Source of the DNA: an uncultured Chloroflexia bacterium
GTDB taxonomy: Bacteria; Chloroflexota; Limnocylindria; Limnocylindrales; CSP1-4
Direction: 5' to 3'
Length of the DNA stretch: 64,000 nt
NCBI GenBank assembly: GCA_963768655.1
Contig: CAVYIM010000004.1
Span: forward strand, 320,001-384,000
Part shown: one piece after another, positions 1,630 to 58,305 of the stretch
How positions within the stretch are numbered: the first letter of the stretch is position 1
Layout: each line of letters opens with the position of its first letter
Notes under the pieces: model-generated
Databases searched by the model: none
What the model saw: only the letters and a program-made list of their open reading frames with translations
What the model was told of the DNA's origin: nothing
Position numbers and translations under genes: made by a program

Positions 1630-3081
1630 ATGCGCGCCCACATGCTCGCCCGCAAGCAGCGGGGCGAGGACGGCCGCCAATCGCTGAACGGGCGCCCAGG
1701 CGGCGGTCCGCGACGAACCGGCGAGGACGTGACGCCGCTCGTCGCGCACGTGCTCGCGCTCCAGAGCTCCGCCGGCAACGCCGCCGTGTCTCGGCTGTTC
1801 GCGGGCGGGGCTTCGTCGCCGACCGCCGTCCCCGCGAACGAGGGCGACGAGGAGGATCTGCAAGACGGGGCCGAACCGTCGGGGACGACACAGCCGGCTC
1901 CGGCCCAGGGTGAAGCCGCGGGCGCGAGCGATCTGGCGGAGCCGGAGCCGACCGGCGGCGGCCAGCCCGGCGATCTGACCGAGCCGGCTCCGGCCCAGGG
2001 CGAAGCCGCAGGCCCGAGCGATCTGGCCGAGCCCGAGCCGACCGGTGGCGGCGCTGCGGGTCTCGAGGGCGAGAGCGGGACCGAAGCCGGGGCCGAGCCG
2101 ACAGGCGGGGCCGGCGCTGCGGGTCTCGAGGGCGAGAGCGGAACCGCAGCCGGGGGGGCCAGCGCTGCGGGTTCCGAAGGCGCGAATTGGACCGAAGGCG
2201 ACGGCGCCGGCGGTCCCGGTGCCGGCTGGACGGAGGGCGACGGTGGTGGAGGCGGCGAAGGTGAGGGCGACGTGCCCGACGTCGTCGAGGAGGATCCGTT
2301 CCTCCCGCTGACCGGGGGCGGTCCCGTCGCGTCTGGTCCGGGCCCGAGCCCGGCCTCGACCGGCGGCTCGGGCCCCGGCTTCGTGGATCTCGGTCGGGTC
2401 GGCAGTTCAGCTGCCGGCGAGCCCATCTCCGACGAGACGTACAAGCCGCACGCCTTCACCGATGGCGGCCGTGCCGGGTCGGCGCAATGGAGCGGCGGCG
2501 GCCCCGGCGGCGGTCCCAAGGGCAACGAGGAAGCCGGCTCGACGTCGCCCGACGGGACGGTGCAACCAAAGTACGTCTCGCGGTCCAATGGCGTTCTCCG
2601 ACAGTCGGAGGCGTGGGTGACCCCCGGTACCGGAACCGTCAGCGTCGTCCGACAGTGGTTCGGGGCCGAGCCCGGCGACCAGGGCAACGGCTGGTACGTG
2701 ACCGACGCGGCCGCGGCGCGCCTCAACCAGCATGAGGAACTCCACGTCCAGAAATCGCGTGAGTACTACAGCCAGTTCCTCGACCCGATGATGAATCGGA
2801 TGGCGACCTGGGGCCCAACCGGAAACCACGCCACGGCATACCTGCAGTGGTCGGCGATCTCGACGCTCGAGGCGGCCGTGGGCTGGGACAAGGCGCTGGA
2901 GAGCTTCTTCGTGCAGGATCGCCTGGCCAACGTGAACGGCGGGATCGTCGACCAGGACGACCTCAGCTCCGGCACGTACCCCCAGCGATTCCCGTCGCCG
3001 GAGAAGCCGGAGCAGATCAAGATCGGCGGCAAGGACTACGCCTCGCTTCTGAAGATGCCAGGCGAGAAGACGCCGGCGTAG
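1630..3081 (+). CDS. Putative CIS cargo/effector: LQSSAGNAAV motif, acidic Gly/Pro linker, C-terminal HEELH domain
   Basis: ATG 1630 after GAGG; motif at 1759-1788 matches [10 protein letters not shown] of the DUF4157 protein; HExxH at 2731-2745. Confidence 0.7.
   Translation: MRAHMLARKQRGEDGRQSLNGRPGGGPRRTGEDVTPLVAHVLALQSSAGNAAVSRLFAGGASSPTAVPANEGDEEDLQDGAEPSGTTQPAPAQGEAAGASDLAEPEPTGGGQPGDLTEPAPAQGEAAGPSDLAEPEPTGGGAAGLEGESGTEAGAEPTGGAGAAGLEGESGTAAGGASAAGSEGANWTEGDGAGGPGAGWTEGDGGGGGEGEGDVPDVVEEDPFLPLTGGGPVASGPGPSPASTGGSGPGFVDLGRVGSSAAGEPISDETYKPHAFTDGGRAGSAQWSGGGPGGGPKGNEEAGSTSPDGTVQPKYVSRSNGVLRQSEAWVTPGTGTVSVVRQWFGAEPGDQGNGWYVTDAAAARLNQHEELHVQKSREYYSQFLDPMMNRMATWGPTGNHATAYLQWSAISTLEAAVGWDKALESFFVQDRLANVNGGIVDQDDLSSGTYPQRFPSPEKPEQIKIGGKDYASLLKMPGEKTPA
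1891..2160 (+). repeat. Intragenic duplications (PAPAQGEAAGxSDLAEPEPTGGG x2; AAGLEGESGT x2)
   Basis: Direct repeats visible in DNA and protein. Confidence 0.85.
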
Positions 3082-3308
3082 CGGCGCCCGGCAGGCTGCA
3101 GGCCCTTGCGTGGGCCCAGGCCAGTCTCGGATTTCGTCCGGGGTCTCGCGTCCGTCCCATTGGTGTGGATTCGACCCAACAACCGCGTCGTGACTCACTA
3201 CACTTCTGGCGGGTCCAGTCCGGGTAGGAAGGGTGCCAGGGCAAGGGTTCCGTCACGCGAGCCCGATCTCCCGGAGACAGGGGACCGGCTCGTACGTCCC
3301 TGCGAACC

Positions 3309-5009
3309 CCTTCTGCTACGCCTACGACGCCACCGACGAGCTCCTCTGGAAGGGTCCGAACGCTAACGGCTCGGGGTCCTCCGCCTTTAGCTACGATGCC
3401 CTGGGCAACCTGCTCTCGAGCCAGCCCTCGGGTCCGGACTCGGGCAGCCTGAAGCCGACCACCTACACCTACGACCCCGCCGGGCACCTGCTCACCATCG
3501 ACGATGGCACGGCGGCCCAGAAGGTCACCTTCACCATCGATGCCGCCGGCCGTCATGCGAGCGAGGTTATCGGCTCGGGAGCGACCACGACGTACGAGTA
3601 CCTCGGTACATCGGATGTGATCAGCTCGGAGACTACGAGCGGCGTCACGACCTACTCGGGTATCGATGCCATCGGCGATCGATTGAGCCAGGGCAGCGGC
3701 GCCAGCGTGGCGGGCTGGCTCATCGCCGATCTCCACGGCAACATCGTCGCCGCCGCATCGAGCGGCTCCTCGCCGGCCTATCTAGATGCCTACCGCTACG
3801 ACCCCTACGGCGAGACCTGCGGCTCCTGGGCCGCCTCATCGGGCTCGCTCACCGTACCCTGGCGCTTTCAGGGCCGGATCCTGGAGTCGGACATCGGCGC
3901 CGGTACCGATCTGTATGACTTCGGGGCTCGCGCCTACGATCCCGATCTTGGCGACTTCACGAGCTTCGACACCGTCTCGGGCTCCGCCCTGAACCCGCTC
4001 ACCCTCAACCGCTACCTCTATGCCAGCGCCAACCCTGAGACATTGGTGGATCCGGACGGCCACGCCAACTGCGGTGGCGCCGGGAACGCGGCCGAGGAGG
4101 AAGCCTGCGAGGCGGCCGCGGAACCTCCGTCGCCTGTGTCTCAACCTGTCTCTCATCCGAACACCGAGCTCTTCAACTGCTCGGGCGCACCCGCCTCGTC
4201 TGCTGCCGAGTGCGAGGCGGCCAAGTTCGACGCTCAGCTTGAGACGGCGCGGGCCGAGCTGTCGGGCAGCACCGACTCGACCACCGCGGCCTACGACTCC
4301 GTGCTACACGACTCTGTGCTACACGACACCACCGACTCGGGCAGCGCGGTCTACTCGTACACGAGCAGTGCAGACGCGGCGGTCCCCACGACCTACCTGG
4401 GCGAAACCGCCGACGTGAAGCGCAACATCGCCAACGAGAACGAGATGGAGCACTACAGCGGGCAATGTCTGAACGGGAACGACTCGGCCTGCGCGACGAT
4501 GAAGACGATCAATGTGGACTACAACAACGTGTCGAACTTGCTTGGAAACGTAAGTACTCTCGGAAGTAGTGCCGGTCTGTGTTTGTTGACGGGCGCAGAA
4601 ACTCTAGGCGTCGGCTGCACACCTCTCATCGGCGAAGCTATCTACACGGCCATCACAGCGGGAGAACAACTTAAGGAAGGGCCAGCCACTTCTGGAAGGC
4701 TGGTCCTGGCAGGATGCCACAATCGCAGCGGTGGGCACATACGTGATGACCACGACGGACTTGACCGTGCCGGTGGTGGCGGGTCTGGGTGCAGCTGTCG
4801 GGTTCGTCTCAGACGTGATTTCACAGGAGGCCAAACATCCACTCACAATGCCCAACCTCCCGCACGCTTTCTGCGCAAGTGGCACGAGCGGCCTCTCCTC
4901 CGTAGCCGTGTTCAGCAAGACAGTCAATGGCGTGGTGCGAGGCGCCTTCTGGAGTCTGTTGACTGGTTTCGATAGCAACGAAGTCTGCAATGAGGTGTTT
5001 GGTGGATAG
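3309..5009 (+). pseudogene. rhs: Orphan Rhs module A1: truncated type A core plus toxin tip with one frameshift
   Basis: YD repeats; NRYLYASANPETLVDPDGH ending at 4063; an extra G at 4679-4681 joins the tip to the 4731..5009 frame. Confidence 0.85.
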
Positions 5010-5376
5010 CGCCGCGCAGCAAGCAGCGATTGTCTTCTTTATCTGTTGCTTACCGATGAGCGTCCTCTGGTCGTCTGTCGCGATCTTGTCCGCAGGCTTT
5101 CTTGGCCATCCTCAGGATCAGCCAGCCGTTGTCCAGTTCCTCGTCTCTAGGACTGGTTCAGGCCTGGAGTACGACCATCCAGTTCCGGTCGTATTTGCCC
5201 TGTCATGTTTGGGTTTCGCGGCCTTCAACTTCGTGCCCGTGTCTCTCCTTGCCGACAACCCATATGGCCCGCAAAGCCTGGCCGTCGACGTCGTGTACCT
5301 GATTGTCCTCGGGCTTTGGCTTGTCCGGTTGGCGGTGGCACTGATCCGATCACGATCCCGCCACCCGGACGAGTGA
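5002..5376 (+). CDS. Candidate 3-TM immunity protein for tip A1
   Basis: GTG after GAGGTG overlaps the toxin stop; homologous to 14018..14392. Confidence 0.7.
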   Translation: MDSAAQQAAIVFFICCLPMSVLWSSVAILSAGFLGHPQDQPAVVQFLVSRTGSGLEYDHPVPVVFALSCLGFAAFNFVPVSLLADNPYGPQSLAVDVVYLIVLGLWLVRLAVALIRSRSRHPDE

Positions 5377-5386
5377 CCGTCTCCCG

Positions 5387-5735
5387 ATGAGTGGTCTCGG
5401 CGATTTCTACGTGGGCTGCCTGCTGGCGGCCGGGGAGGTCGTGGTCGTAGTGGCGATCGAGGTTCGAAATCGCCCTCGGTCTGGGTCGGATACCCGTCTC
5501 AGGCCCCTTGGCGATGATCGCTCGCGACTTCGAGGCTCCAGTGAGCCACCGACGTACATACCTGGCGACATACGCCCTGATCCTGGCCATGTTTCAGTTC
5601 TTCCCATTGAGCCAGGAGCGGTTGTTGGGTGGCAGTTCTCCGCCGAACCATATCAGCGGTGCCGCGGTCGTTGCTGCGGAGATACTCTTCGCCGTATATG
5701 TCTGGCTCGGCACCCGTCCGGCGGAACCGAAGTAG
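5387..5735 (+). pseudogene. Frameshifted small membrane protein, candidate orphan immunity
   Basis: Hydrophobic N-terminus in the 5387 frame continues in the 5508..5735 frame; shift near 5500. Confidence 0.5.
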
Positions 5736-6089: not shown

Positions 6090-7578
6090 GAGGATGTCCC
6101 GCTCGTCGTGGAATTTCAGTGAGGGTCGGGTCTCCAGGTTGCTGATCATATCGGTTGGTTGGTAGCGCTCGCCTCGCTTTCGATGTGGAGCTCGCGCTTT
6201 AGCGCAGCGGCAAGAATGGGCAGCTCCCGATAGCCGCAGACTCGGCGGAACTGAGCCTCTGCGGCGAGCATCCCAGCGGCGGCCCAGCGCAGCGCCATCT
6301 CGCCCGACTCCCAGTTCTTCACCCGGCGGGCGTGCGTCTTGACGATCTCGATCATCGATTCCATCGGGTTGGTCGACTCGAGCGTCCTCCAGAGCGAGCC
6401 GCTGATGCCCAGACGCGTCAGGGTGAGCGTGTCGTCGAGCCCCTCGCGCAGCGACGCGGCGGCTCCCGGACGGCTGTGGGCCAGACTGCGGGCCAGGGAG
6501 TGGAGGGCCGCCTTCGCCCTGTCCGGATCTCGCTCGGCCCAGGCGGCCCGAAGCCGGCGCTGGGCGAGCGGTCGTTCGATCTCGGGCAGGTGCTCTAGAA
6601 CGTTGCGCTCTTTGTGGCGATGGCAGCGATGGATCGCCACGCCTTTGCCCAAGAAGGTGGGGATGGCCGAACCGATGGCGGAGCCGCCGTCGACGACGAA
6701 GAGGACGCCTGCGCTTGTGTCCAGACCGCGATCGCGCAAGTCCGCCAGGAGCGCGTTGACCACCGCGCTGTTCTCGGTCGTGCCCTCGACCACGCCGAGG
6801 GGCACCTTGTGGCCGGCGGCGTCGATCCCGAGCGCGCCTACGAGCAGGTGATCGCCCAGGCGAAAGCCATCGAGCATGAGCACGAGGTAGCGGCGGTCGT
6901 CGAGTCTGCGCCCGAGCAGCTCAGCCAGGCGCTCTGCCGTGGCGGCGAGGAAGCGGCGGCTGACGGCGGCGTGGCTGGTCGAGACGGCGGCCTCCTCGAT
7001 GGCCTCGCCAACAGGCTCGAGGCCAACCGGATAGTCGCGAGTCGAGAGCCCCGCGAGCATCCGGGCGACGATCCCGTCGGCGAGCAGATCGCTGGCTCTC
7101 GCGGCCTCGTAGGTCGCGAGCGGCAGCTCGGCTGCTCCATCGGCACTTCGCACACGTGGCCGCTCGACGCGGAGTCGGCGGCCGCCCAGGGTCACGGTTC
7201 CGGCTTCACTGCCATGGCGATAGGCAACTCGATCCGCTCGGTGGCGGCCGCGTGGGCCGGCCAGGCCGTCAACCTCAGCCGCCATCAGCTCGTCGAGGAC
7301 CTCGAGGCCGACCGCGGTCGAAGCGGCCAGCAGGCCCTCGCGCAGATGGCTCGCGAACGTGGCGAGATGGCCCTCGAGCCGCCCTGTCAGCTCAGCAGGA
7401 AGCTGGTGAACGAGACGGCGAGGTCGGCGGCATCGCTTCTCAGGGCGGGGCCGGACGTGGGACGATGGCATGGGTTCCTCCAGTTCGACTTTCCGGGTCT
7501 CCCGTAGCGTGACAGCTCACGCTCCGGGCTGGAGGACCCACCCCTCAACTCAAATTCCACGGAACTCGGGACAACCTC
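6090..7578 (-). mobile_element. IS256-family element copy 1 (1489 bp)
   Basis: Imperfect 27-bp inverted ends GAGG(A/T)TGTCCCG...CGTGGAATTT; 8-bp target duplication CCAAGACC. Confidence 0.95.
6146..7471 (-). CDS. IS256 (mutator-type) DDE transposase
   Basis: LMLDG, FVVDG, HRCHRHKERN and STNPMES motifs; 441 aa. Confidence 0.92.
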   Translation of the reverse strand: MPSSHVRPRPEKRCRRPRRLVHQLPAELTGRLEGHLATFASHLREGLLAASTAVGLEVLDELMAAEVDGLAGPRGRHRADRVAYRHGSEAGTVTLGGRRLRVERPRVRSADGAAELPLATYEAARASDLLADGIVARMLAGLSTRDYPVGLEPVGEAIEEAAVSTSHAAVSRRFLAATAERLAELLGRRLDDRRYLVLMLDGFRLGDHLLVGALGIDAAGHKVPLGVVEGTTENSAVVNALLADLRDRGLDTSAGVLFVVDGGSAIGSAIPTFLGKGVAIHRCHRHKERNVLEHLPEIERPLAQRRLRAAWAERDPDRAKAALHSLARSLAHSRPGAAASLREGLDDTLTLTRLGISGSLWRTLESTNPMESMIEIVKTHARRVKNWESGEMALRWAAAGMLAAEAQFRRVCGYRELPILAAALKRELHIESEASATNQPI

Positions 7579-8015: not shown

Positions 8016-8157
8016 CCGTTGAAGCCGGCCCCAACACCGCCAAGGCGATGGCCGCCGTCCGGGTGACTTTCTCCGCTGGTCCCGCCGAGGTGGCGGTTGG
8101 CGTTCGAATCGGCCGTCCAGCGGCAAACGCGCAAGCCTTCATCTATGGTCCGTCGCC
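8016..8157 (+). repeat. About 140-bp diverged repeat, second copy near 20566-20707
   Basis: Shared gaagccggccc...cgatggccgccgtccgggtga...ggtcccgcc...ggccgtcca blocks, each just before an Rhs core. Confidence 0.75.
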
Positions 8158-9601
8158 GGTCACCTTCACCATCGATGCCGCCGGCCGTCATGCGAGCGAG
8201 GTCATCGGCTCGGGAGCGACCACGACGTACGAGTACCTCGGTACATCGGATGTGATCAGCTCGGAGACTACGAGCGGCGTCACGACCTACTCGGGTATCG
8301 ATGCCATCGGCGATCGATTGAGCCAGGGCAGCGGCGCCAGCGTGGCGGGCTGGCTCATCGCCGATCTCCACGGCAACATCGTCGCCGCCGCATCGAGCGG
8401 CTCCTCGCCGGCCTATCTAGATGCCTACCGCTACGACCCCTACGGCGAGACCTGCGGCTCCTGGGCCGCCTCATCGGGCTCGCTCACCGTACCCTGGCGC
8501 TTTCAGGGCCGGATCCTGGAGTCGGACATCGGCGCCGGTACCGATCTGTATGACTTCGGGGCCCGCGCCTACGATCCCGATCTTGGCGACTTCACGAGCT
8601 TCGACACCGTATCGGGCTCCGCCCTGAACCCGCTCACCCTCAACCGCTACCTCTATGCCAGCGCCAACCCGGCGACCCTTGTGGATCCGGACGGCCATTG
8701 CGCCGGCGACGCCGACGACGAGCGAGGGCTCATGGACAAGTGCACGTCATGGGCGTACGTGGGATCGGACCTCGAGTGCGTCGAGCGAGGCCACAAGCCG
8801 TCCAGAGGGAAGACGCCGACGGTGACTCCAACGGTGACTCCGACAGCCCAATCGCCTCAACTCACCGGCAAGGAGGCTGCCTACTACAACTTCTGCATGA
8901 ACAACTTCGCCAATGACGAATCGGGCACGATGCCGGACCTTCCTCAGCAGCAGATGACGTGCAATTCTCAAGTAGCCAAGCTGTACGGTGCGCCGTCTGC
9001 TGACGATTCGGCAGCAGCGACAGCTGCTGCGGCTTGCGCTAAGGGCTCGATGAGCGCGTGCGTGGCCCTCGGGGAGTACGTGGCGAACACAGCCTCAAAT
9101 GGCAATTGGCAAGATGCCAAGGAATGTGCATGGAACGAAGACCAAGAATCGGCCGCATGCGCGCAAGTCGGAGTCGAAGTGACGTCGGATACCCTCGCCC
9201 TTTACGCGAAGGTGATAAAGGGTCAGGCGGCCAGTTCCGGGCAGTTGGCAGACGCGAGTGCACCGGCTGTCCCAGTCGCCGAGGCGGACAGTGCGGCCAG
9301 CGACCTATCCAAAGGCATCGGGGTCTTCGGCGCGGCTCTAGACTCAGGCGTGACCTACTTCTCCTGCTCAGGCGGCGAGCATCCGAATGAGAATTGCGTG
9401 GTAAGAGGCGGGATCGCTGGTGGATCCGACTTGGTTGGGGGGTTTGGAGGCGGGACCTTGGCCCTCACGATTTGCGCAGGAGGTGCAGCTGCGACGGCGG
9501 GCCTTTCATGCGTTGCCGCAGGGATCTTGGTCGGTGTGGCCGCGTCTGGTGCGCTGAAATGGATCGGCGACACGACGGGGGACCTAACCAAATGGTGGTG
9601 A
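8158..9601 (+). pseudogene. rhs: Orphan Rhs module A2: short type A core plus intact Cys-rich tip (ORF open from ATG 8048)
   Basis: Core nearly identical to A1; DPDGH ends at 8698; tip ends in a Gly/Ala hydrophobic hairpin. Confidence 0.85.
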
Positions 9602-10815: not shown

Positions 10816-10846
10816 AGCATTGGAAGGCGGCGGACCGTGCGGGCTC

Positions 10847-46447: not shown

Positions 46448-46449
46448 GG

Positions 46450-46869: not shown

Positions 46870-46920
46870 GGTGTCTACCGCCCGATTCGAGGTTCCGCTC
46901 AAGCATCGACCGCCACCTCA

Positions 46921-48669: not shown

Positions 48670-48676
48670 GGCGACC

Positions 48677-48835
48677 TCACTCCTCTCCGGTCAGTCGCCG
48701 GTTGATGCCCGCGACCTCTTCGACAAACCGCCGCCTGTCCGGATGCTCGAGATCCAGGATCTCCTCGAAGGACCAGTGAAGGTGGTAGCCGACGTACGCG
48801 ATCTCCTCGAAGAGGCGGTCGGTCGCGTACGTCAT
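48677..48835 (-). CDS. DUF6760-like 52-aa protein (absent from the ORF track)
   Basis: MTYATDRLFEEIAYVGYHLHWSFEEILDLEHPDRRRFVEEVAGIN; ATGA overlap with the upstream gene. Confidence 0.85.
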   Translation of the reverse strand: MTYATDRLFEEIAYVGYHLHWSFEEILDLEHPDRRRFVEEVAGINRRLTGEE

Positions 48836-49254: not shown

Positions 49255-49257
49255 CGC

Positions 49258-49716
49258 TTACTTGACCCTCACGAAGGTCTCGCAGACGATCGTGACCTCC
49301 TCGACCGAAGGCGTGTTGTCGCCGGCCTTGAAACCGGTGACCGTCAACTTCGAGACCCAGGCGTTGGTGAAGTTGTAGCGGGCGACTTCCTGGTGCTCGA
49401 AGTCGTACTGGACGATCGAGCCGTTTCGCCGGGCATCCTTGAGCTTGCCGTCGAGCGCGGCCTGGTGCCAGTTCCACAGGTCCATGGACTGGTTGGCGGC
49501 CCGCTTCAGGGTGATCGTCGGCGGCTTGATGGCGCCGATCTGCTTCTTGAGGGTGGGCCGGCCCGCCTTGTCGACCTCCTTGACCTCGATGACGTCGAGC
49601 TCCGACGCCGCCCCGGTCACCTCCTGGAACTGGGCGAGGCTGACGCTGTCGATCTCGATCGAGAAGCGCTGGGCGCTCAGGGCGTCCTGGGGAAGATTTG
49701 GGACACCAGCTGGCAT
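49258..49716 (-). CDS. CIS inner tube protein (gp19-like)
   Basis: F.IEID, ITLKR, RRNGSI, RYNF.NAW.SK. Confidence 0.92.
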   Translation of the reverse strand: MPAGVPNLPQDALSAQRFSIEIDSVSLAQFQEVTGAASELDVIEVKEVDKAGRPTLKKQIGAIKPPTITLKRAANQSMDLWNWHQAALDGKLKDARRNGSIVQYDFEHQEVARYNFTNAWVSKLTVTGFKAGDNTPSVEEVTIVCETFVRVK

Positions 49717-49750
49717 GTTGGAATCTCCTTGCGCTCCTACCGGTTGGCGC

Positions 49751-51265
49751 CTATTCGGTCAGCGACGCGCCGCCGGAGAACTGGGCGATCCGGAAGATCA
49801 CGAATTCGGCCGGCTTCACGGGCGCGATCCCTATGTCGATGATCAGCTGGCCGGCGTCGATCGTTTCCGACGTGTTGTTCTCCCCGTCGCACTTGACGAA
49901 GAAGGCTTCGCCGGGCGTCGCGCCGAACAGCGCGCCGTCGCGCCAGACGCGGACGAGGAACGAGTTGATCGTCCGCTTGACGCGTTCCCAGAGCGCCATG
50001 TCGTTGGGCTCGAAGACGACCCACTGGGTACCTTCGAGGATCGACTCCTCCACGTAGTTGAAGAGGCGCCGGACGTTGAGGTACCGCCAGGCCGGATCGG
50101 ACGAGAGAGTCCTCGCGCCCCAGACGCGGATGCCGCGGCCGGGGAAGGAGCGGATGCAGTTGACTCCGATCGGGTTGAGGAGGTCGTGCTCGCTCTTGGT
50201 GATCTGCACTTCCAGGGCGATGGCTCCCCGGACGACTTCGTTGGCGGGGGCCTTGTGGACGCCACGCTCCGAGTCGCTGCGGGCCCAGATGCCGGCCATG
50301 TGGCCGGATGGCGGCACGAAGATCGCCCGGCCGGCGAGCGGATCGAAGACCTTGACCCAGGGCCAGTACAGGGCCGCGTACTTGGAGTCGTAGCCGGCCC
50401 GATCGGTCCGCCACTCGTGGATCTGCTGCGCCCCGAAGTCGGGCGGCGCGTCCAGGATGGCGACCCGGTCGCCCATCAGCTCGCAGTGGGCGATCATCGC
50501 CAGCTGGACGGCCTTCACGCCCTCCATGTCGATGGTGCCCTTCTGATACAGAGCCATGAGATCGGGAGCGGCGACCATCGTCACCTCGTCGACCGCCTCC
50601 AGGCCGCCGAAGCCGGTGCGCTCGGCCGCGTTGCCGGCGTATTCGTCCGGAGTGACCCGGATCGTGCCCGTCGTCGTGCCGCCGCTGAGCGACATCCTGC
50701 CCATGGCGGGTGTCAGCTCCGACTTCGTGACCTCTTCGAGACGGATCCGGTGGGACGTCCTGGTCTGGGTGAAGACGTTCTGGCGGCCCTTCTTGAGGGT
50801 TACGTTGTCGTAAACCTCATCCTCCTTACCGCCAACCGACACGATGAGCTTGAAGACGCCTTCGCCAGGTTCCGACGGTTCGGCCACCTCGACCGAGATC
50901 TGGTCGCCGGAGACGCCGGGCTCGAGGGCGACGGCCCGGAACGCCGGGACCGATTTGTCGGTGGAGCTCGGCAGCTCGAGGCGGGCGGCCGGGGCAACGC
51001 CGTCCGCTCCGATCCGGACAACATAGGCGGCGCCGCCGCCGTTCAGGAAGTAGCCGTAGACGGCATGGGCGAGATAGGAGCCCTCGATGAAGTCTCCGAA
51101 CGTGGATGTGAACTGGGTCCAGTTGGTGACCAGGACGGGCGTGTTGGCGGGTCCTAGCTGAGCAAGGCCGACGAAGGCTGCGACGGCGGTCCCGACGCCC
51201 TCGATCGGGCGGGAGCCGGCCTCGACCTCCTCGACGTAGACGCCGGGCGACAGGTATTGCGGCAT
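49751..51265 (-). CDS. CIS contractile sheath protein
   Basis: YLSPGVYVEEV, RGVHKAPANE, WGARTL, VNVRR-like YLNVRRL, VFEPN, APVKPAEFV. Confidence 0.95.
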   Translation of the reverse strand: MPQYLSPGVYVEEVEAGSRPIEGVGTAVAAFVGLAQLGPANTPVLVTNWTQFTSTFGDFIEGSYLAHAVYGYFLNGGGAAYVVRIGADGVAPAARLELPSSTDKSVPAFRAVALEPGVSGDQISVEVAEPSEPGEGVFKLIVSVGGKEDEVYDNVTLKKGRQNVFTQTRTSHRIRLEEVTKSELTPAMGRMSLSGGTTTGTIRVTPDEYAGNAAERTGFGGLEAVDEVTMVAAPDLMALYQKGTIDMEGVKAVQLAMIAHCELMGDRVAILDAPPDFGAQQIHEWRTDRAGYDSKYAALYWPWVKVFDPLAGRAIFVPPSGHMAGIWARSDSERGVHKAPANEVVRGAIALEVQITKSEHDLLNPIGVNCIRSFPGRGIRVWGARTLSSDPAWRYLNVRRLFNYVEESILEGTQWVVFEPNDMALWERVKRTINSFLVRVWRDGALFGATPGEAFFVKCDGENNTSETIDAGQLIIDIGIAPVKPAEFVIFRIAQFSGGASLTE

Positions 51266-51365
51266 GCGGTTCGTCTCCAACACTGCGGAGATGTAGAGGC
51301 TGAGGGTCCGCTCTGGCCAGGTCGGCGGCAATGGTCGGGCGGGCGGTCTGGAGGGAAGAAACGGG

Positions 51366-51542: not shown

Positions 51543-52295
51543 ATGATCGAGGTCTTCGACGAGACTCTCCGCGAGCTCGTGCGACGCGAGGTTCTGAACG
51601 GCAGCCAGGTCGAGATCGCCTTCGACGCGCCCACCAAGGATTGGGCGTCTCGCCGGAACGCCCCCGTCGTCAACCTGTACCTGTACGACATCAGAGACGA
51701 CCTGACTCGCCGCGAGGTCCAGTACGAGGAAGTCCGCGATCCGGCCGGCCGGGTCACCGAGAGGCGTCCGCCGGTCCACCGCTTCCGGCTCTCCTACATC
51801 GTCACCGCCTGGACCCAACGGCCGGAGGATGAGCACCGCCTCCTGTCTGCGTGCCTGGCAAGCTTCCTGCGGCACGAGACCCTGGCCCCGCGCGAGCTCT
51901 CCGGCGCCCTTGCGGCGCAGCCTCACCCGGTCCTCTTGAATGTGGCGCTGCCGCCCACCGAAGACCGCTCGATCGCCGACGTGTGGACGGCCCTGGGTGG
52001 CGAGCTCAAGCCTTCGATAGACCTGGTGGCCATCGTTCCGTTCGTCGTCGACCGACATCAGGAAGCAGGGCCGCCGGTCCTCGAAGCGCCGCGCCTGACG
52101 CTGACGTCGCGCCGGGAGTCTCCGGAACGGATCCCGAGCACGGGTCGGGGACGGGCCGCCGCCAGCGCCGGCGCCGGCGCGGGAGACGGGGGCGAGAGCC
52201 GGCTCGACGCGGGAGTGGCCGCGGAGACGGTCACGGGCGGGAGCGAGGATCAGCCGGGTCGGATCGTTCGCGTCCGATCGGTCCGTCGCCTATGA
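51543..52295 (+). CDS. DUF4255 / Pvc16-like cap (tail terminator) protein
   Basis: FDAPT..W, NLYLYDIR, LSY.VTAW...EDEHRLL, W.ALGGELKPS. Confidence 0.9.
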   Translation: MIEVFDETLRELVRREVLNGSQVEIAFDAPTKDWASRRNAPVVNLYLYDIRDDLTRREVQYEEVRDPAGRVTERRPPVHRFRLSYIVTAWTQRPEDEHRLLSACLASFLRHETLAPRELSGALAAQPHPVLLNVALPPTEDRSIADVWTALGGELKPSIDLVAIVPFVVDRHQEAGPPVLEAPRLTLTSRRESPERIPSTGRGRAAASAGAGAGDGGESRLDAGVAAETVTGGSEDQPGRIVRVRSVRRL

Positions 52296-54538
52296 CCGGG
52301 ACGGGTGTGCGGGACGCCGCTCCGGCGCGCGACGGCGCGCCGGAGGCGGCTGGAGGCGACCCCGAGATCGATCCGTCGCTGCGTCACCTGGCCGGCCGGA
52401 TGTCGATCGTCGAGGCTCGCGTAGGGATCCTCGTGGCGGCGAGGAGGGCTTCGAACGCCAACCCCGACGACAGGTTCCGAGGGCTGTACGTATCCGATTC
52501 CGACGCGGCGATGCTGGTCCAGGGCTCGGCCGCCCACGGTGCGGGTCCACCCGCGGGGCCGCCCGCGGCGACGGCTGCGGGGCCGCCGGCGGCGACGGCC
52601 CGGGGACCCGCGGCGGACACTGCGCCCGCGGAAGACGGGATCGCGACGGCCTTCGCCGCGGTCGAGGCCGACGCCGACCGGGCCGAGGCGGACGGCCGCG
52701 AGATCCGCCTGCGGACTCTGTCCCGCGCCTATGGGCTGGACCGGCTCGACGAGGAGCTGCTCCTGATCGCGCTCGCGCCCGATTTGGATCCACGGTACGA
52801 GCGGCTGTACGGGTACTTGAACGACGACGTCTCGAGGAGGCGCGCGTCGGTCGGCCTGGCGCTGACGCTGTGCGGCGTGTCGGTCAGCTCGGGCGTCGGG
52901 CGCGGCCGTCTCGGCGTATCCGGCCCGCTCGTGGCTGGTCGCCTGATCGAGATCGAAGACGCGGGCCGGCCATTCCTGACCCGCCTGCTCCGCGCTCGAG
53001 ATCGAGTGGTCGGTTTCCTGCTGGGCGACCCCACTCCGGACGCCGGGCTGGCGGGGTTGCTGCCGGCCGTCGATGGTCCCGCCTCGACTGAAACTGGCTC
53101 CCCTGATTCCGCCCGATCCGCCGAGGAAGCGATGCTGGAACGCGGCCTACGCGCCGGAGCGGGACTCGCCTACGTCCGCGACGGAGTGGGTTCGGACGGG
53201 CGCGGCATCGCCCTTGCCGGCTCGACGCGGACCGGAGCTCGAGTCATCGCCCTGGACCTCGAATCTCTCCCGCCCGAGCCGGACGTCCGGGGCGTCGCAG
53301 CCGCCGCGGCGCTGGAAGCGCGGCTTCGCGGCGGCGCCGTAGTCGCGGGGCCGCTCGACGTCCTGGCCGACCTGGGCCCGTGGGCCGTCTCCGCCTTCGC
53401 CGACCTGCCCTGCCGGGTCGTGCTCCACGGAACTCGAGCCTGGGACCCGCGATGGTCGCACCGTCCGCCGCTGTTCATCGAAGCGCCCCAGGCGACGGCG
53501 GCCGAGCGGTCGCGGGCCTGGCGGGCCTCGCTCGACGGGTTGCCCGGGGCCGACGATCTGGCCGCCGCCGTCTCGGCCTATCCATTCCGCCTCGCGCCGC
53601 CGGAGATCGCCCGGGCGACGAGCCTGGCCCGTCTTGCCGCAGCCGCGGCCGGTCGACCGGTCGCCGCCTCCGATCTGGCCGCCGGCGTTCGGGCCCGAAA
53701 TGCGACCGGCCTGCAGAAGCTCGCTCGCCGGATCGAGCCCCGGGCCGGGTGGTCGGACCTGATCCTGCCGCCCGACATCGTCGACCATCTGCACGACCTG
53801 TCGAACCGGGCCCGCCATCGCGACCAGGTCCTGGATGGCTGGGGACTCGGCGATCCGAACCGGGGTCGCGGGCTCACCGTCCTGTTCACCGGCGACTCCG
53901 GGACGGGCAAGACGCTGTCGGCCGAGGTCGTCGCCGGCACGCTGGGCCTGGAGATGTACCTGATCGACCTGTCCTCGGTCGTCGACAAGTACATCGGGGA
54001 GACGGAGAAGAACCTCGACCGCGTCTTCAGCCAGGCCGACGGAGTCAACGGCGTGCTCCTCTTCGATGAGGCCGACGCCATCTTCGGGAAGCGTTCCGAG
54101 GTTCGCGACGCCCACGATCGCTACGCCAACGTGGAGATAGCCTATCTGCTCCAGCGGATGGAGCGCTTCGACGGCATGGCGATCCTGACCACGAATCTGC
54201 GGGCCAACCTCGACGATGCTTTCCTGCGCCGGCTGGACGTGCTGGTCGACTTTCCGATGCCCGACGAGGCCCAGCGACGCCGCCTCTGGCAGCGCCATCT
54301 ACCTTCCAGCCTGCCCGTCTCTGACGACTTGGACCTCGATTTCCTGGCCCGCAGCTTCCGGGTTTCCGGCGGCAGCATCCGAAACATCGTGGCCACGGCC
54401 GCCTACAACGCCGCAGCCGGTGACCGGCCCGTGGCGATGGCGGACCTCATCAGGGGCACCGAACGCGAATACCGAAAGCTCGGACACCTCAACACGGAGG
54501 CCGAGTTCGGGCCCTACTTCCATCAACTGGGATCGTGA
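52292..54538 (+). CDS. CIS-associated AAA+ ATPase (Afp15/Pvc15-like)
   Basis: GDSGTGKT, VVDKYIGETEKNL, LFDEADAIFGKR, DRYAN. Confidence 0.92.
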   Translation: MTGTGVRDAAPARDGAPEAAGGDPEIDPSLRHLAGRMSIVEARVGILVAARRASNANPDDRFRGLYVSDSDAAMLVQGSAAHGAGPPAGPPAATAAGPPAATARGPAADTAPAEDGIATAFAAVEADADRAEADGREIRLRTLSRAYGLDRLDEELLLIALAPDLDPRYERLYGYLNDDVSRRRASVGLALTLCGVSVSSGVGRGRLGVSGPLVAGRLIEIEDAGRPFLTRLLRARDRVVGFLLGDPTPDAGLAGLLPAVDGPASTETGSPDSARSAEEAMLERGLRAGAGLAYVRDGVGSDGRGIALAGSTRTGARVIALDLESLPPEPDVRGVAAAAALEARLRGGAVVAGPLDVLADLGPWAVSAFADLPCRVVLHGTRAWDPRWSHRPPLFIEAPQATAAERSRAWRASLDGLPGADDLAAAVSAYPFRLAPPEIARATSLARLAAAAAGRPVAASDLAAGVRARNATGLQKLARRIEPRAGWSDLILPPDIVDHLHDLSNRARHRDQVLDGWGLGDPNRGRGLTVLFTGDSGTGKTLSAEVVAGTLGLEMYLIDLSSVVDKYIGETEKNLDRVFSQADGVNGVLLFDEADAIFGKRSEVRDAHDRYANVEIAYLLQRMERFDGMAILTTNLRANLDDAFLRRLDVLVDFPMPDEAQRRRLWQRHLPSSLPVSDDLDLDFLARSFRVSGGSIRNIVATAAYNAAAGDRPVAMADLIRGTEREYRKLGHLNTEAEFGPYFHQLGS

Positions 54539-54551: not shown

Positions 54552-55589
54552 ATGAGCAGCCGGGATCGCACGCGAACACACGCGCACGAGCAGGCCGAAG
54601 TCGTGCCGGCGCGGCGCCGGCCCCAGCCGGCCGCGGAAGAGGCGGTCGAGGGCGAGGCGCTGCATGCTACTGATCTCGCGCGGCCGGCCGGGCTCGGTCA
54701 GACGGAGATCCGACATCTACAGCGGACCGCCGGCAACTCCGCCGTCGCATCGCTGATGGACGACCTCGACGAGGTGGATCCGGTTCCGGGCGATGGCCAG
54801 CGGCTCGATCCGGCCTTCGAGGCCAGGATGGCCCAGGCGTTCGGGACCGACTTCTCCGACGTCCGGGTCCACGACGGCGCCGATGCCGCGGCCTCCGCTG
54901 CCGCCTTCGAGGCCCGTGCCTACACCATCGGCAACGACATCGTCCGGGGCGAAGGCTCGGGCGACGATCGGACGATGGCCCACGAGCTCGCCCATGTCGT
55001 CCAGCAGCGGAACGGGCCGGTCGGCGGAGCTCCCGTCGGCGGGGCCAACGTGGCGCGTTTCTCGATCAGCGATCCGAGCGACGCCCTGGAGCAGGCGGCC
55101 AATTCCGCGGCCAGTTCCGTGATGGGCGGCGGAATGCCGAGCATCCCCGGCCTGGGCAGCCTGCCCGGTCTGGGCGGCGGCATGCCGAGCATCCCCGGCC
55201 TGGGCAGCCTGCCCGGTCTGGGCGGCGGCATGCCGAGCCTGCCGAGCATCCCCGGCCTGGGCAGCCTGCCCGGTCTGGGCGGCGGCATGCCGAGCCTGCC
55301 GAGCATCCCCGGCCTGGGCAGCCTGCCCGGTCTGGGCGGCGGCATGCCGAGCCTGCCGAGCATCCCCGGCCTGGGCAGCCTCCCCGGTCTGGGCGGCGGC
55401 ATGCCGAGCCTGCCGAGCATCCCCGGCCTGGGCAGCATCCCCGGTCTGGGCGGCGGCATGCCGAGCATCCCGGGTCTCGGCGGCCTGCCCGAGCCCGGGC
55501 AGCTCGAAGACGACCTGACCAAGGGCGCATCCGGCCTCATGGGCTCCCTCGGCGGACTCGCCGGCTCTCTTGGCGGGCTCTTCGGCTAG
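54552..55589 (+). CDS. DUF4157 (eCIS core domain) protein with C-terminal Gly/Pro/Leu repeats
   Basis: [37 protein letters not shown]. Confidence 0.9.
55134..55490 (+). repeat. Coding tandem repeat: 2 x 48 bp, 4 x 57 bp and a partial unit
   Basis: MPS(LPS)[13 protein letters not shown] units. Confidence 0.95.
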
Positions 55590-55652: not shown

Positions 55653-56279
55653 CTAGATGAGGCCCTGGCGAATCACGTAGGCGACCGCGTGGGCGCGGTT
55701 GCGCAGCTCGAACCGGACTGTCACGTCGTGGATGATGTTCTTGACCGTCCGCTCGGAGAAGTACAGCTCGCGTCCCACTTCCGCCGTGTCGTGGCCGTCC
55801 GCGATCAGCTTGAGGACCGCGACCTCGCGTTCGGTCAACCCGCCGAGAGTCAGGCCGCGCGGAGACAGCACCTGGCGCTGCAGCCGTCCGACCTGGGCGA
55901 GGAGCCGGCCCAGCAGGTCGGGTGGCAGCGTGCCGTCGCCTTCCGCGGCCCGCCGGATCGCCTGTTCGAGCGTGGCGGCGTCACTGTTCCGACGGACGAT
56001 GCCACTCACGCCGGCTTCTACGGCGGCGAGCAGGCCTGCGTCGTCGATCCGGCCCACGAGCAGCACGACCCGCCGAAGGCCGGCCGCCGGTGTCGTGCGG
56101 ATGGCCTGGATGGTGGCCCCGTCCGCTTCTTCGGCCGCGATCAGCGTGACGCCGCCTTCGGGTGTCGGACCGGAAGTGAGGACGATGTCGGGCTTGCGGC
56201 CGAGCCTGGCCTCGATGCCCGCTCGAGTCAGCGGATCCGCGCCGCTCAGCGACACGACGATCTTGTTCTGGGACGCCAT
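55653..56279 (-). CDS. LuxR/NarL-family regulator with degenerate receiver domain
   Basis: LTERE..VL.LIADG...SERTVKN...LRNRAHAVAY; GGAGG RBS. Confidence 0.9.
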   Translation of the reverse strand: MASQNKIVVSLSGADPLTRAGIEARLGRKPDIVLTSGPTPEGGVTLIAAEEADGATIQAIRTTPAAGLRRVVLLVGRIDDAGLLAAVEAGVSGIVRRNSDAATLEQAIRRAAEGDGTLPPDLLGRLLAQVGRLQRQVLSPRGLTLGGLTEREVAVLKLIADGHDTAEVGRELYFSERTVKNIIHDVTVRFELRNRAHAVAYVIRQGLI

Positions 56280-56387: not shown

Positions 56388-56453
56388 CGCCTCAAGAGGC
56401 CGAAGTCTGCCCCTTAGGGCAACGCGATCCACCCCTCGGCGCCTTTTCAGGCA
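56388..56453. promoter_or_regulatory. Three YGCCY-N4-RGGCA-type palindromes in the LuxR/accessory divergent promoter
   Basis: CGCCT-CAAG-AGGCC (56388), TGCCC-CTTA-GGGCA (56408), CGCCT-TTTC-AGGCA (56440). Confidence 0.6.
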
Positions 56454-56482: not shown

Positions 56483-57763
56483 ATGGCATCGATCGTGAAG
56501 CTCCCGAGCGACGTGGTCCAGGTCGTCCCCGGTTCCGAGGCGACCATCCCGGTCACCGTCCGGAACACCGGCACCGTCGTGGACCAATTCACCATCGAAG
56601 TCCTCGGCGAAGCAGCCGCCTGGGCGACCGTCCAGCCCCCGACCCTTTCGCTGTTCCCCGGCGCCGAGGGCAAGGCCGTCGTCACCTTCGCGCCCCCGCG
56701 CGTGGCCTCCGTTCCCGCCGGCCCGCTCGTCTTTGGGATCCGAGTGGCTTCGCACGAAGACCCGACAGGGAGCACGGTGGAGGAGGGGAATCTCAACGTC
56801 GCGGTGTTCGCGGACACGTTCGCCGAACTCCTGCCTCGCACGTCCGCCGGGAGTCGCTCCGCGTCCCACAGCCTGGCGATCGACAACCGGGGCAACGCCG
56901 CCCTCAATGCCACGGTGGCCGGCACCGATCCCGACAATCTGCTCAACATCGCCGCTAAGCCCGCCGGCCTGGTCGTCGACCCGGGAACGGCCGCCTTCGC
57001 GAGCATTCACGTTTCGCCGCGCAAGAGCTTCTGGCGCGGCCAACCGAAAACGCGTCCGTTCAAGCTCCAGGTTGAGTCGCCCGACGGCGCTCCTCTGGTT
57101 CTGGACGGCACGATGCTCCAACAGCCCGTCCTTCCGGGCTGGCTTGGGAAGGCTCTGCTGCTGTGCCTGGCACTGCTGCTCCTGGCGGCGTTGCTCTGGT
57201 TCGGGCTGCTTCAGCCCGACATCAAATCGACTGCCCAGCAGGCCCTGGCCGACGCCGGATACACGCCTCACCCGTCCGGCGCGGCAGCTACGCCGGCGCC
57301 GACCGCGGCCGCGACGCCGACCGCGGCGCCCAGCGCGGCGCCGAGCCCGAAGCCCAGCTCGACGCCAGGGCCGACGTCGGGGCCGACGGCCGGGCCGACC
57401 GCCAGCCCGTCGCCGCTGTCGCCCTTCGCCGGAACCCCCGTCGACGGCCGCCTCACGGCCAACGGGAAGCCCAATTCGACCGGGCCGGTCGCGGCGGGAG
57501 AGGTTCTCTACATCACTGACCTCATCTTCGAAAACCCGAATGGGTTGAGCGGGCCCGCGCAGCTTGTACGTAAGGGCCTGGTGATCGCGGATCTCCAGCT
57601 CGAGAACTTCCGCGACCTCGACTACCACTTCATCACACCGATCGTGCTCGACGCCGGCGACGGACTCACCTTCACCGCGAGTTGCCCTCCCAACAACCTG
57701 GCGACGGCGCCACCTCTGCCATGCACCCCATCCGTCTACTACTCCGGCTTCACCATCCCGTAA
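56483..57763 (+). CDS. CIS-associated single-TM protein with N-terminal Ig-like (COG1470-type) domains
   Basis: VRNTGTVVDQF, LSLFPG, EL.PRT, N.GN; TM; LENFRDLDYHF.TPI. Confidence 0.8.
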   Translation: MASIVKLPSDVVQVVPGSEATIPVTVRNTGTVVDQFTIEVLGEAAAWATVQPPTLSLFPGAEGKAVVTFAPPRVASVPAGPLVFGIRVASHEDPTGSTVEEGNLNVAVFADTFAELLPRTSAGSRSASHSLAIDNRGNAALNATVAGTDPDNLLNIAAKPAGLVVDPGTAAFASIHVSPRKSFWRGQPKTRPFKLQVESPDGAPLVLDGTMLQQPVLPGWLGKALLLCLALLLLAALLWFGLLQPDIKSTAQQALADAGYTPHPSGAAATPAPTAAATPTAAPSAAPSPKPSSTPGPTSGPTAGPTASPSPLSPFAGTPVDGRLTANGKPNSTGPVAAGEVLYITDLIFENPNGLSGPAQLVRKGLVIADLQLENFRDLDYHFITPIVLDAGDGLTFTASCPPNNLATAPPLPCTPSVYYSGFTIP

Positions 57764-58305
57764 GCGGGCGCTCGATCGGGCGGGGCCTGGCCGCGGCAAG
57801 CATCCTGACTCTCGCGGCAGCTTCCGGCCCGACCGCCCCGATCACCGCCGGCGCCGAGATCGCGGCGTCTGCGGGACCGGCCGGCTACGGCGCCACGACT
57901 CAGCCGCAGGCCGAGATCCTGCTCCCACCCACGATCACGCTGTCACTCTCCGTTGGACCGCCCGGTTCCGTGACCACCGTGACCGGCAGCAACTTCGCGG
58001 GCCAGCAGCCGGTCCTGTTGCAGTGGTCGACGGGTGTCCCATACCAGCTGCCGAATCCCGTAGTAACCCGGGACGACGGCACGTTCCAGGTCCAGTTCCT
58101 GGTCGTCGCCGGGGACGATGTCTTTGGGCCGCGTGAGCTCCAGGCGGCCATTCCCTTCGTCGGCTTCTTCGGCGCGCCAACGACCACCAATGGGCGGGTC
58201 GTCGCCCAGGCCCAGTTCCTGGTCGTGCCGCACACCGCCGGGCCACCGACAGACGACATCATCCACGCCATCTGGGGGTCGCGGCCGTTCTTCTTCCGGC
58301 ACTGA
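57760..58305 (+). CDS. Hypothetical exported Ig-like protein; start uncertain
   Basis: Signal-like segment, then GPPG.V..VTG..F...V.L.W. Confidence 0.55.
   Translation, partial: VSGRSIGRGLAAASILTLAAASGPTAPITAGAEIAASAGPAGYGATTQPQAEILLPPTITLSLSVGPPGSVTTVTGSNFAGQQPVLLQWSTGVPYQLPNPVVTRDDGTFQVQFLVVAGDDVFGPRELQAAIPFVGFFGAPTTTNGRVVAQAQFLVVPHTAGPPTDDIIHAIWGSRPFFFRH

Follow-up and report, generated by a model that had tools for sequence, protein, structure and literature searches.

Introduction

Orphan Rhs C-terminal tips and the associated immunity genes form arrays downstream of the main rhs genes of Enterobacteria, and the WapA-type Rhs proteins of Gram-positive bacteria are Sec-exported. In this study we analysed a stretch of 64,000 nucleotides from the assembly of an uncultured Chloroflexia bacterium (GenBank GCA_963768655.1, contig CAVYIM010000004.1, positions 320,001 to 384,000; hereafter the window), in which such an array of Rhs tips stands between a gene cluster for a complete contractile injection system (CIS) and, 33 kb from that cluster, an open reading frame (ORF) resembling CIS cargo genes, ORF1630. 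CIS and orphan Rhs arrays are both known kinds of system, and the question addressed here is whether they belong together in this genome.

Loci of extracellular CIS (eCIS) are flanked by GerE and BTAD regulators, and the main text of the survey that describes them names DUF4157, GerE and BTAD as eCIS-associated, while the word Rhs is absent from it (PMC8213781). A cytoplasmic CIS lineage of Chloroflexota, related to that of Streptomyces, has already been published (PMC12998442), and the members of this lineage that have been studied are described as acting within the producer cell (PMC12237407; PMC12998442). DUF4157 proteins of Streptomyces are reported to associate with spike or tube-initiator proteins (PMC11126660; PMC13277306). 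The cargos of AlgoCIS are described as having a common, system-specific and disordered N-terminal loading sequence, DUF4157 being optional (bioRxiv 10.64898/2026.05.27.728243). A literature search found nothing linking Rhs to this CIS lineage.

A sequence-only reading of the window had proposed an integrated system, in which a CIS regulon brackets a library of Rhs toxin tips that could feed the CIS, and had offered as an alternative that the array is an independent island next to the CIS genes. Our analysis favours the alternative. The best explanation, to which we give a probability of roughly 0.78, is that two unrelated accessory modules stand side by side in one variable region and that ORF1630 is probably a remote cargo of the CIS. 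The first module (35.6-58.3 kb) would be a complete CIS of the actinobacterial/Chloroflexota lineage with its own regulators, a membrane protein in the position of CisA and a small DUF4157 protein, to which ORF1630 would be joined through a common N-terminal LQxxAGNxAV helix. The second (3.2-30.8 kb, perhaps to 34.3 kb) would consist of displaced, 5'-truncated Rhs tips and immunity genes, derived from large Rhs proteins such as those found in relatives and of a kind that has no link to CIS.

Genomic context

The assembly (genome G000) comprises 3.37 Mb in 9 contigs, is 88.6% complete and has a mean GC content of about 68.6%; the window lies on its contig C4. Genes were called by codon usage trained on the genome and were then scanned against Pfam.

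The CIS module is present in two relatives, on contig C187 of G046 and contig C21 of G005, where it starts at the same regulator gene and most of its genes are 57-94% identical to those of the window. In G046 it reaches as far as the homologue of the ORF at 57721-58305. Neither contig carries a homologue of anything between window positions 1630 and 35415, Rhs sequences and ORF1630 included, and the ORF at 34378 has no counterpart on either of them. The surroundings of the module differ as well, the CIS of G046 adjoining homologues of C4:406.8-428 kb and that of G005 adjoining homologues of C3:882-913 kb. In two genomes without a CIS (G023 and G063) the homologues of C4:406.8 kb are found at a distance of 1-5.6 kb from the ferredoxin gene (C4:321.4 kb), and it follows that about 85 kb of G000 is a variable insert, which takes in the whole of 1630-58305. 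The insert holds ORF1630, the array and the CIS together with 28 kb more. No tRNA gene was found at the ends of the island. A tip like one of those in the array (T3, Table 1) occurs with its likely immunity ORF in G046, at another site of the backbone beside homologues of G000 C6:296-302 kb. The array and the CIS also differ in base composition, GC being 63.5-65.8% in the former and 70-72% in the latter. These separate flanks and the GC content, together with the domains of the presumed parent proteins described below, speak for an independent island.

The contractile injection system

The CIS cluster occupies 35.9-58.3 kb of the window and its gene order is as in Streptomyces. All ten core structural parts (sheath, inner tube, tube initiator, VgrG-like spike, PAAR tip, gp25, Baseplate_J, P2_I wedge, Pvc16-type cap and AAA+ ATPase) were matched by Pfam at E 1e-8 to 1e-41, and a tblastn comparison shows three Streptomyces/Streptomycetaceae loci (L105, L107 and L089) to have their genes in collinear order, which bears out the earlier description of the locus as complete. 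A Pfam scan recognised no tail-fibre gene in the cluster. The label "Streptomyces-type" holds for the gene order but not for the organism. Baseplate_J is 60-75% identical to proteins from Chloroflexota/Limnocylindrales/Dormibacterota metagenome assemblies and 56-59% identical to those of Streptomyces, and the closest named relatives are Chloroflexota/Limnocylindrales genomes, not Streptomyces. The host itself is probably represented by a metagenome-assembled genome of Limnocylindrales (Chloroflexota), not of Streptomyces.

The limits of the module are well supported by its relatives. The STAND/BTAD regulator at the left end is 77-82% identical in G046 and G005, where it also adjoins the CIS, and the region upstream of it is conserved from about position 35641. 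On the right, the GerE regulator and the 426-aa and 194-aa proteins all accompany the CIS in G046. The protein in the position of CisA lies directly 3' of the baseplate genes and consists of an N-terminal part without structure, a single membrane helix and a domain at the C-terminus; homologues stand at the same place in 56 of 75 CIS loci, those of Streptomyces being 28-31% identical. By analogy with the studied members of the lineage, this CIS would act in the cytoplasm, at the producer's own membrane.

Two zinc ribbons are present at the N-terminus of the CisA-position protein, and its C-terminus weakly matches an F5/8 type C-like translocation domain (E 0.004); the passages in which CisA is described mention neither feature (PMC12237407). 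A variable component of the structural operon is a disordered protein of 562 aa, about 44% identical to its counterparts in G046 and G005, as against 84-94% for most of the remaining structural genes. This protein may be tape-measure-like or a cargo, and evolve rapidly. Tandem repeats were also seen in the disordered part of the DUF4157 protein (55100-55500), the unit beginning GGGMPS(L/I).

A putative remote cargo

The description of ORF1630 as CIS-cargo-like is supported by a sequence motif and by co-occurrence. When the whole assembly was translated in six frames the pattern LQxx[AVI]GNxA[VTLI] gave two matches, and the reversed pattern gave none. Both matches are near an N-terminus, at residue 44 of ORF1630 and at residue 39 of the DUF4157 protein of the CIS. 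In its strict form the pattern has 10 matches in 7 of 78 CIS loci, in the DUF4157 genes of G046, G005, G045 and four named loci. A homologue search with the C-terminal 214 residues of ORF1630 against 5.8 billion proteins returned a family of 11 proteins, the query included, in which GDQGNGW and HExxH are invariant. The N-terminal motif or a close variant of it is present in seven of these, and three (ORF1630 counted) have the strict pattern. In the class sample of 401 genomes, three have a member of the family, and all three have a sheath gene, against a base rate of 13%; the hypergeometric figure of 0.002 applies to genomes that are kin and not independent.

In the AlphaFold model of ORF1630 (mean predicted local distance difference test score, pLDDT, 55) a helix at residues 36-59 is followed by disorder at 60-293 and by a folded part at 305-483 with pLDDT 75-91. 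In this model the protein has the layout of described cargo, with an N-terminal element common with the DUF4157 protein, a disordered stretch and a variable C-terminal domain. ORF1630 had no Pfam match, and DUF4157 was not matched even at E <= 1; the C-terminal domain by itself gave nothing usable. Foldseek with the model of all 483 residues found no PDB entry with E <= 0.001, and the best result of VIA-align with the whole model (Z 5.5, designed helical bundles) is not meaningful. The coding sequence of the disordered part contains tandem repeats at 1887-2052, two 76-nt copies 89% alike.

We regard ORF1630 as probably a cargo or an adaptor of this CIS, with loading through the LQxxAGNxAV motif as the proposed route. 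The other possibility is that the ten-residue motif is due to chance or belongs to a generic helix, and that the protein has another role. This would fit with its distance of 33 kb from the nearest gene of the cluster, with the lack of DUF4157, with the location of its homologues in G106 and G433 on contigs other than that of the sheath gene, and with a family found in just three genomes, which makes the co-occurrence thin. It is, however, less easily reconciled with the confinement of the motif, within 3.37 Mb, to ORF1630 and the DUF4157 protein of the CIS, with its recurrence in DUF4157 genes at further CIS loci and in most of the family, with the presence of a sheath gene in every family genome, and with the cargo-like architecture. 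An unrelated role for ORF1630 is considered the less likely reading.

The sequence-only reading had also called the locus a regulon. A near-palindrome, CTTCCCGAACGGGCAA, is present at 1450-1465 upstream of ORF1630, and a relative of it with three mismatches at 56407-56422, between the GerE regulator gene and the ORF at 56483. As a shared operator it was rejected as too weak: the window holds three matches with <=3 mismatches where 0.57 are expected, three of 100 shuffles reach three, and the site at the sheath promoter fails as a copy of the near-palindrome upstream of ORF1630. Co-regulation is thus left with one weak common near-palindrome and nothing more.

The Rhs array and its presumed parents

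Rhs sequences and small ORFs extend over 27.5 kb (3233-30788). Six core ends carry the sequence NRYLYA..P.TLVDPDGH and each is followed by a different, unrelated C-terminal region of 230-300 residues, so that a DPxG-type cleavage motif with a variable C-terminal domain behind it is present in six copies. Two types of core are distinguished, and the type A cores are 94-100% identical over about 150-270 residues. All six tips are 5'-truncated: just the last 150-290 or so residues of the core remain, without an N-terminal trafficking domain. None of the six matches a Pfam family at E <= 1, and neither did twelve downstream or flanking ORFs of the array, immunity candidates included, give a usable Pfam match at that threshold. 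The C-terminal regions of several tips finish in Gly/Ala-rich hydrophobic stretches, and the last 80 or so residues of T1 are Arg-rich and apparently out of frame. The array had been described as about 31 kb of Rhs tips and immunity genes. It does contain six tips and at least two further fragments, but about 4.5 kb of it belongs to three copies of an insertion sequence (IS).

Small membrane-protein ORFs are found downstream of each tip, and the SUKH-3 gene alone has the support of an immunity family; it is for this gene that the earlier term "immunity genes" is established by family. A 115-nt copy of its 5' region is present at 20383-20497. The best evidence for a toxin-immunity pair comes from T3, the whole of which is 64% identical over 469 residues to a sequence on contig C31 of G046, and from the ORF at 12618-12923, whose homologue (82% identity, 101 of 101 residues) adjoins the T3-like tip in that genome (L029). 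The two, kept together in G046, are likely to be such a pair. A Kelch-repeat protein in the tail of the array is also found 3' of Rhs tips on two contigs of G012 (L028:2648-3643 and L032:6084-7049, 75-86% identity), and appears to belong to an Rhs cassette instead of being a mere neighbour of one.

The array also bears marks of decay. The IS is a 1489-bp element of the IS256 family with a Mutator-type transposase (PF00872, E 1e-26) and imperfect terminal repeats (GAGGATGTCCCG / GAGGTTGTCCCG). Identity among its three copies in the array is 99.9-100%, and an intact 8-bp target duplication accompanies every one of them; the assembly of 3.37 Mb holds 12 copies, three of them within the 27-kb array. 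The element is active-looking and the three insertions appear recent. Two of them, copies 2 and 3, interrupt tips T4 and T6, and the type B tips have two compensating frameshifts about 55 codons apart; in all, 4 of 7 tips or fragments are split by an IS or frameshifted. Among public sequencing runs no RNA run with the sequence was listed. A public DNA run that contains 15% of the sampled words was assembled over 20500-23200, and one contig of 464 nt from it spans 21022-21485 and covers the first frameshift of T5 without a gap. This is weak support for the frameshift, as the run may be the sample of origin.

No full-length rhs gene of type A or B is present in the assembly, where tblastn found no further core of either type, contig ends included, and consequently the tips cannot be made or exported alone. 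As stated in the sequence-only reading, there is no PAAR-Rhs fusion, in the window or in the assembly. The sole other Rhs sequence is an unrelated ORF of 4286 aa, outside the window and 137 kb upstream (G000:C4:181429-194289). Its layout is unusual for an Rhs protein: an N-terminal Rhs/YD core running to DPSGK and a Gly/Ala-rich hydrophobic stretch are followed by Kelch-like blocks, three in number, almost identical and each about 330 aa long, and by more than 20 Fn3-like repeats, and no signal peptide is evident.

Full-length relatives of the tips were found elsewhere in the genus. They are proteins of 2549-3858 aa, 29-66% identical to the tips, with Laminin_G_3, CBM_4_9, immunoglobulin-like (Ig-like) and DUF6531 regions. 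The closest full-length relative of type B (L024) is 54-62% identical, and 94% across the last 62 residues of the core. Signal-peptide-like N-termini are seen in L024, L031 and L108. None of the full-length relatives in the genus has PAAR, DUF4157 or an LQxxAGN motif, and the same is true of the best 120 database relatives, proteins of 470-2000 aa, longer ones being outside the search; the relatives in the database are named Candidatus Limnocylindrales. The lectin, carbohydrate-binding (CBM) and Ig-like regions, taken with the signal-peptide-like N-termini, suggest that the parents are exported to the cell surface through the general secretory pathway. The N-termini of the parents themselves had been proposed as a check on the integrated system, and the related full-length proteins give the answer expected of surface proteins, with signal-peptide-like N-termini, Ig, lectin and CBM regions and no PAAR.

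The most fitting reading of the array is that of an orphan toxin/immunity remnant, left by Rhs toxins that are probably Sec-exported to the cell surface. Its function at present would most likely be that of an immunity-gene bank and recombination reservoir, now decaying through IS insertions and frameshifts. It could also be that the array is a live recombination library, independent of the CIS and a working arsenal, with a full-length rhs of type A or B, either in the 11% of the genome that is not assembled or in strains living alongside, onto which tips are still swapped by homologous recombination. The 150-270 or so near-identical core residues of the type A tips could support recombination, these tips are all cut near one position of the core as repeated displacement would predict, the frames of T1, T2 and T3 are uninterrupted through the toxin part, and on contig C10 of G006 a main rhs is indeed followed by two orphan tips. 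However, a main rhs is normally directly upstream of its orphans and in this genome that place is taken by ORF1630 and a 150-nt spacer. This, with the missing cores and the number of damaged tips, leads us to regard a library in current use as unlikely.

Association of Rhs with CIS and the weight of the evidence

The company of Rhs and CIS in other genomes was examined as well. In the class sample of 401 genomes, 52 have a sheath gene, 70 have an RHS_repeat match and 14 have both (odds ratio 1.9, p 0.076), and 38 of the 52 CIS genomes are without any Rhs repeat. Family f1 contains nearly all of the CIS genomes, and among its 138 members (sheath in 45, Rhs in 37, both in 14) the odds ratio is 1.4 (p 0.54); co-occurrence inside this family is near random. 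At the level of the genus (51 genomes, type-A-like query) a sheath gene is present in 5 genomes, Rhs in 26 and both in 3, and the CIS genomes G005 and G060 have no Rhs match. The sampled genomes are kin and many are incomplete, and the Rhs tally counts five unpublished genomes (G129, G214, G171, G207 and G344).

Physical linkage was also looked for. Rhs was not found by tblastn in any of 75 CIS loci. There are 13 other genomes with both systems, and for 10 of these all Rhs matches were listed: none has Rhs near the sheath gene, which is on the same contig in three of them, 427-920 kb away, and on a different contig in seven. Another five CIS genomes have long contigs: there is no RHS_repeat match in four of them, and in the remaining one Rhs comes no closer than about 600 kb on the contig presumed, from its length only, to hold the CIS. 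The proposed check of CIS-rhs synteny in relatives thus went against the integrated system, Rhs being unlinked to CIS in related genomes.

The integrated system would have the tips as a cargo library of the CIS, each tip being joined to a carrier gene by recombination, or held by an adaptor, before it is placed on the spike or inside the tube for firing. What recommends it is the place of the array between a cargo-like gene and the CIS, the mildly raised co-occurrence across the class, and a second adjacency of Rhs and CIS in G439 (below). Yet the assembly has no carrier, be it a PAAR-Rhs fusion, an Rhs protein with LQxxAGN or DUF4157, or a full-length rhs of type A or B, and the PAAR protein of the cluster, with 128 aa, has no extension. 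The CIS modules of relatives are without Rhs, related full-length Rhs proteins have the lectin, CBM and Ig-like regions of surface proteins, and array and CIS are 5-8 points apart in GC. In addition, a CIS lineage whose studied members are described as acting inside the producer (PMC12237407; PMC12998442) is ill suited to the delivery of antibacterial toxins that need immunity genes. With no carrier, no synteny in relatives and near-random co-occurrence within the family, we consider it very improbable that the tips feed the CIS.

A number of observations weigh against our explanation of two unrelated modules, and the first of these is G439. On its contig C64 a full-length Rhs of 2549 aa (L108:10523-18172) ends about 4.7 kb upstream of a CIS of another type (L109:1268-18851), so that Rhs and CIS are adjacent in 2 of the 14 genomes with both (G000 and G439, of one family). 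Class-wide, Rhs is found in 27% of CIS genomes versus 16%. For two of the 13 other genomes, among the matches listed, Rhs and sheath are on different contigs in G356 and 227 kb apart in G431. The 75 CIS loci had flanks of 10 kb, too short for an array placed as in this window, and the search of them excludes just Rhs inside or beside the clusters. On the side of the parents, a full-length type A or B rhs could lie in the missing part of the 88.6%-complete assembly, and signal peptides were judged by eye alone from the sequences. The case is weaker for type A, which has no close full-length relative: the best are 60-66% identical (G006 and G066), and of their N-termini one is in a chimeric open frame and the other is frameshifted upstream. 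The small ORFs other than SUKH-3 are putative immunity genes by position and membrane-protein character, and the link of ORF1630 to the CIS, with homologues on contigs apart from the sheath gene, consists of motif and co-occurrence.

The CIS of G439, whose sheath is 45% identical, comprises a BTAD regulator, sheath, tube, Pvc16, AAA, a 935-aa DUF4157 protein, spike, gp25 and Baseplate_J. The Rhs beside it has a signal- or membrane-type N-terminus, then Ig-like repeats and DUF6531, and a small membrane protein is encoded downstream; its own sequence marks it as an exported toxin of the cell surface, which argues against loading by the CIS. It may be that Rhs and CIS genes both just gather in variable regions. 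The converse, that their adjacency is no accident and reflects a coupling not yet described, for instance lysis triggered by the CIS that releases Rhs toxins, or an unrecognised adaptor that loads the tips, with the orphan array in the service of the CIS, appears to us as improbable as the integrated system, and the few per cent that we keep for a real link between Rhs and CIS are owed mainly to the adjacency in G439.

Table 1. Features of the window, with coordinates in nucleotides from its first position. Immunity assignments are candidates unless a family is named.
Feature	Position	Strand	Remarks or basis
Polyferredoxin membrane protein	2-1405		gene call
ORF1630, putative remote CIS cargo	1630-3081	+	LQSSAGNAAV at residue 44
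Tip T1, type A	3233-4975	+	about 270 core residues to LVDPDGH at nt 4049; C-terminal region about 300 residues
Two small membrane-protein ORFs	5209-5376, 5514-5735	+	candidate immunity genes, from their position only
IS copy 1, IS256 family	6090-7578	minus	transposase 6146-7471; 8-bp target duplication CCAAGACC
Membrane protein, 139 aa	7596-8015	+	immunity candidate; ATG directly downstream of IS copy 1
Tip T2, type A	8048-9601	+	shorter core; LVDPDGH at nt 8684, then about 300 residues; Gly/Ala-rich hydrophobic tail
Membrane protein, 347 aa	9772-10815	+	immunity candidate for T2
Tip T3, type A	10837-12336	+	LVDPDGH at nt 11626, then C-terminal region of about 230 residues
Membrane protein, 101 aa	12618-12923	+	likely immunity partner of T3
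Tip T4, type A	14447-17677	+	LVDPDGH at nt 16787; split by IS copy 2
IS copy 2	14683-16171		target duplication CCGGACTC
Membrane protein; further ORF	18737-19303; 19761-20036	+	immunity candidates; the first a paralogue of 22626-23135
Tip T5, type B	20742-22550	+	two compensating frameshifts; LVDPDGH at nt 21714
Membrane protein, 169 aa	22626-23135	+	immunity candidate for T5
Tip T6, type B	23204-26707	+	frameshifts as in T5; LVDPDGH at nt 24296; split right after DPDGHANCGG by IS copy 3
IS copy 3	24326-25814		target duplication GCGGTGGC; toxin part of T6 restarts at 25815
Membrane protein, 215 aa	26854-27501	+	immunity candidate for T6
Type B core fragment	27524-28144	+	repeat families
Small ORFs and Kelch-repeat protein (29078-30076)	27524-30788	+	tail of array
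Type A fragment, 131 nt	30658-30788	+	
Lipoprotein-like beta-propeller gene	30808-32364	minus	
SUKH-3 family immunity protein	32648-33160	+	Pfam
Two membrane-protein genes	after 33160, before 35936		
STAND ATPase with Trans_reg_C and BTAD	35936-38932	+	Pfam; conserved left end of CIS module
CisA-position protein	39100-40662	minus	zinc ribbons, long Pro/Ala-rich region, one membrane helix, C-terminal domain
CIS structural operon	40674-51331	minus	Pfam and relatives
Tail_P2_I wedge	40674-41216	minus	Pfam
Baseplate_J	41213-43192	minus	Pfam
gp25	43189-43590	minus	Pfam
PAAR, stand-alone, 128 aa	43601-43987	minus	Pfam; no extension
VgrG-like spike	44000-45733	minus	Pfam
Tube initiator, CIS_tube and LysM	45737-46447	minus	Pfam
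Second tube protein	46450-46869	minus	Pfam
Disordered variable protein, 562 aa	46921-48609	minus	
DUF6760 and 140-aa ORF	inside structural operon	minus	
Tube	49258-49716	minus	Pfam
Sheath	49751-51331	minus	Pfam
Pvc16_N cap protein	51543-52295	+	Pfam
AAA+ ATPase	52292-54538	+	Pfam
DUF4157 (eCIS_core) protein, 328 aa	54603-55589	+	Pfam; LQxxAGNxAV motif at residue 39
GerE/LuxR-type regulator	55653-56279	minus	Pfam
Single-pass membrane protein, 426 aa	56483-57763	+	
Exported-looking protein, 194 aa	57721-58305	+	

Significance and comparison with described systems

A true link between Rhs and CIS would have been the first case of an Rhs library serving an injection machine other than a T6SS (type VI secretion system). 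Its failure is a caution against inferring function from adjacency within variable regions. What the window does provide is a well-bounded example of a Streptomyces-like CIS in a mesophilic soil member of the Limnocylindrales, a host group that is modestly new for it. Modestly new as well are the candidate loading motif LQxxAGNxAV in DUF4157 proteins, the small and previously undescribed family of remote cargo-like proteins, and six Rhs toxin tips without a known family, one of which has a conserved immunity partner. If LQxxAGNxAV is a true loading signal, the cargo of this CIS lineage could be found genome-wide, beyond the limits of the clusters.

The CIS of Streptomyces coelicolor (CIS-Sc, SCO4242-4260, called a type IId eCIS locus) and the related cytoplasmic lineage of Chloroflexota and Deinococcota resemble that of the window in the order of their genes (sheath, tube, DUF6760, second tube protein, initiator, spike, gp25, Baseplate_J, P2_I and CisA-position protein), and GerE and BTAD regulators stand beside the cluster in the window. 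The CIS of the window, known here from its genes, differs in its host, a Limnocylindrales genome of about 3.4 Mb, and in a CisA-position protein that has two N-terminal zinc ribbons and is 28-31% identical to those of Streptomyces.

As for its presumed remote cargo, ORF1630 and the DUF4157 protein of the cluster have the N-terminal element, disorder and variable C-terminal domain of Cgo1 and Cgo2 of AlgoCIS. Unlike these and the Streptomyces proteins Tme and Sle2, ORF1630 is without DUF4157 and is encoded at a distance of 33 kb, not at the cluster's 3' end, and its C-terminal domain, with GDQGNGW and HExxH, has no family or clear fold match.

The array resembles the orphan arrays of Enterobacteria and WapA-type Rhs in its truncated core ends with the DPxG motif, variable C-terminal toxins, small downstream ORFs and core repeats that permit recombination, and in the signal-peptide-like N-termini and surface-protein-type domains of related full-length proteins. 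It has no main rhs upstream or elsewhere in the assembly, and it departs from them also in its three IS256-family insertions, its double frameshifts, its toxin tips without a Pfam match and the very large size (2549-3858 aa) of the parents in the genus, with their Laminin_G/CBM modules. The likeness to PAAR-Rhs and VgrG-linked effectors of the T6SS is confined to the presence, no more than 20 kb from Rhs sequences, of genes for a VgrG-like spike and for a PAAR protein: the PAAR protein here is unfused to Rhs, no chaperone or adaptor family was recognised by Pfam scan, and the CIS is not a T6SS.

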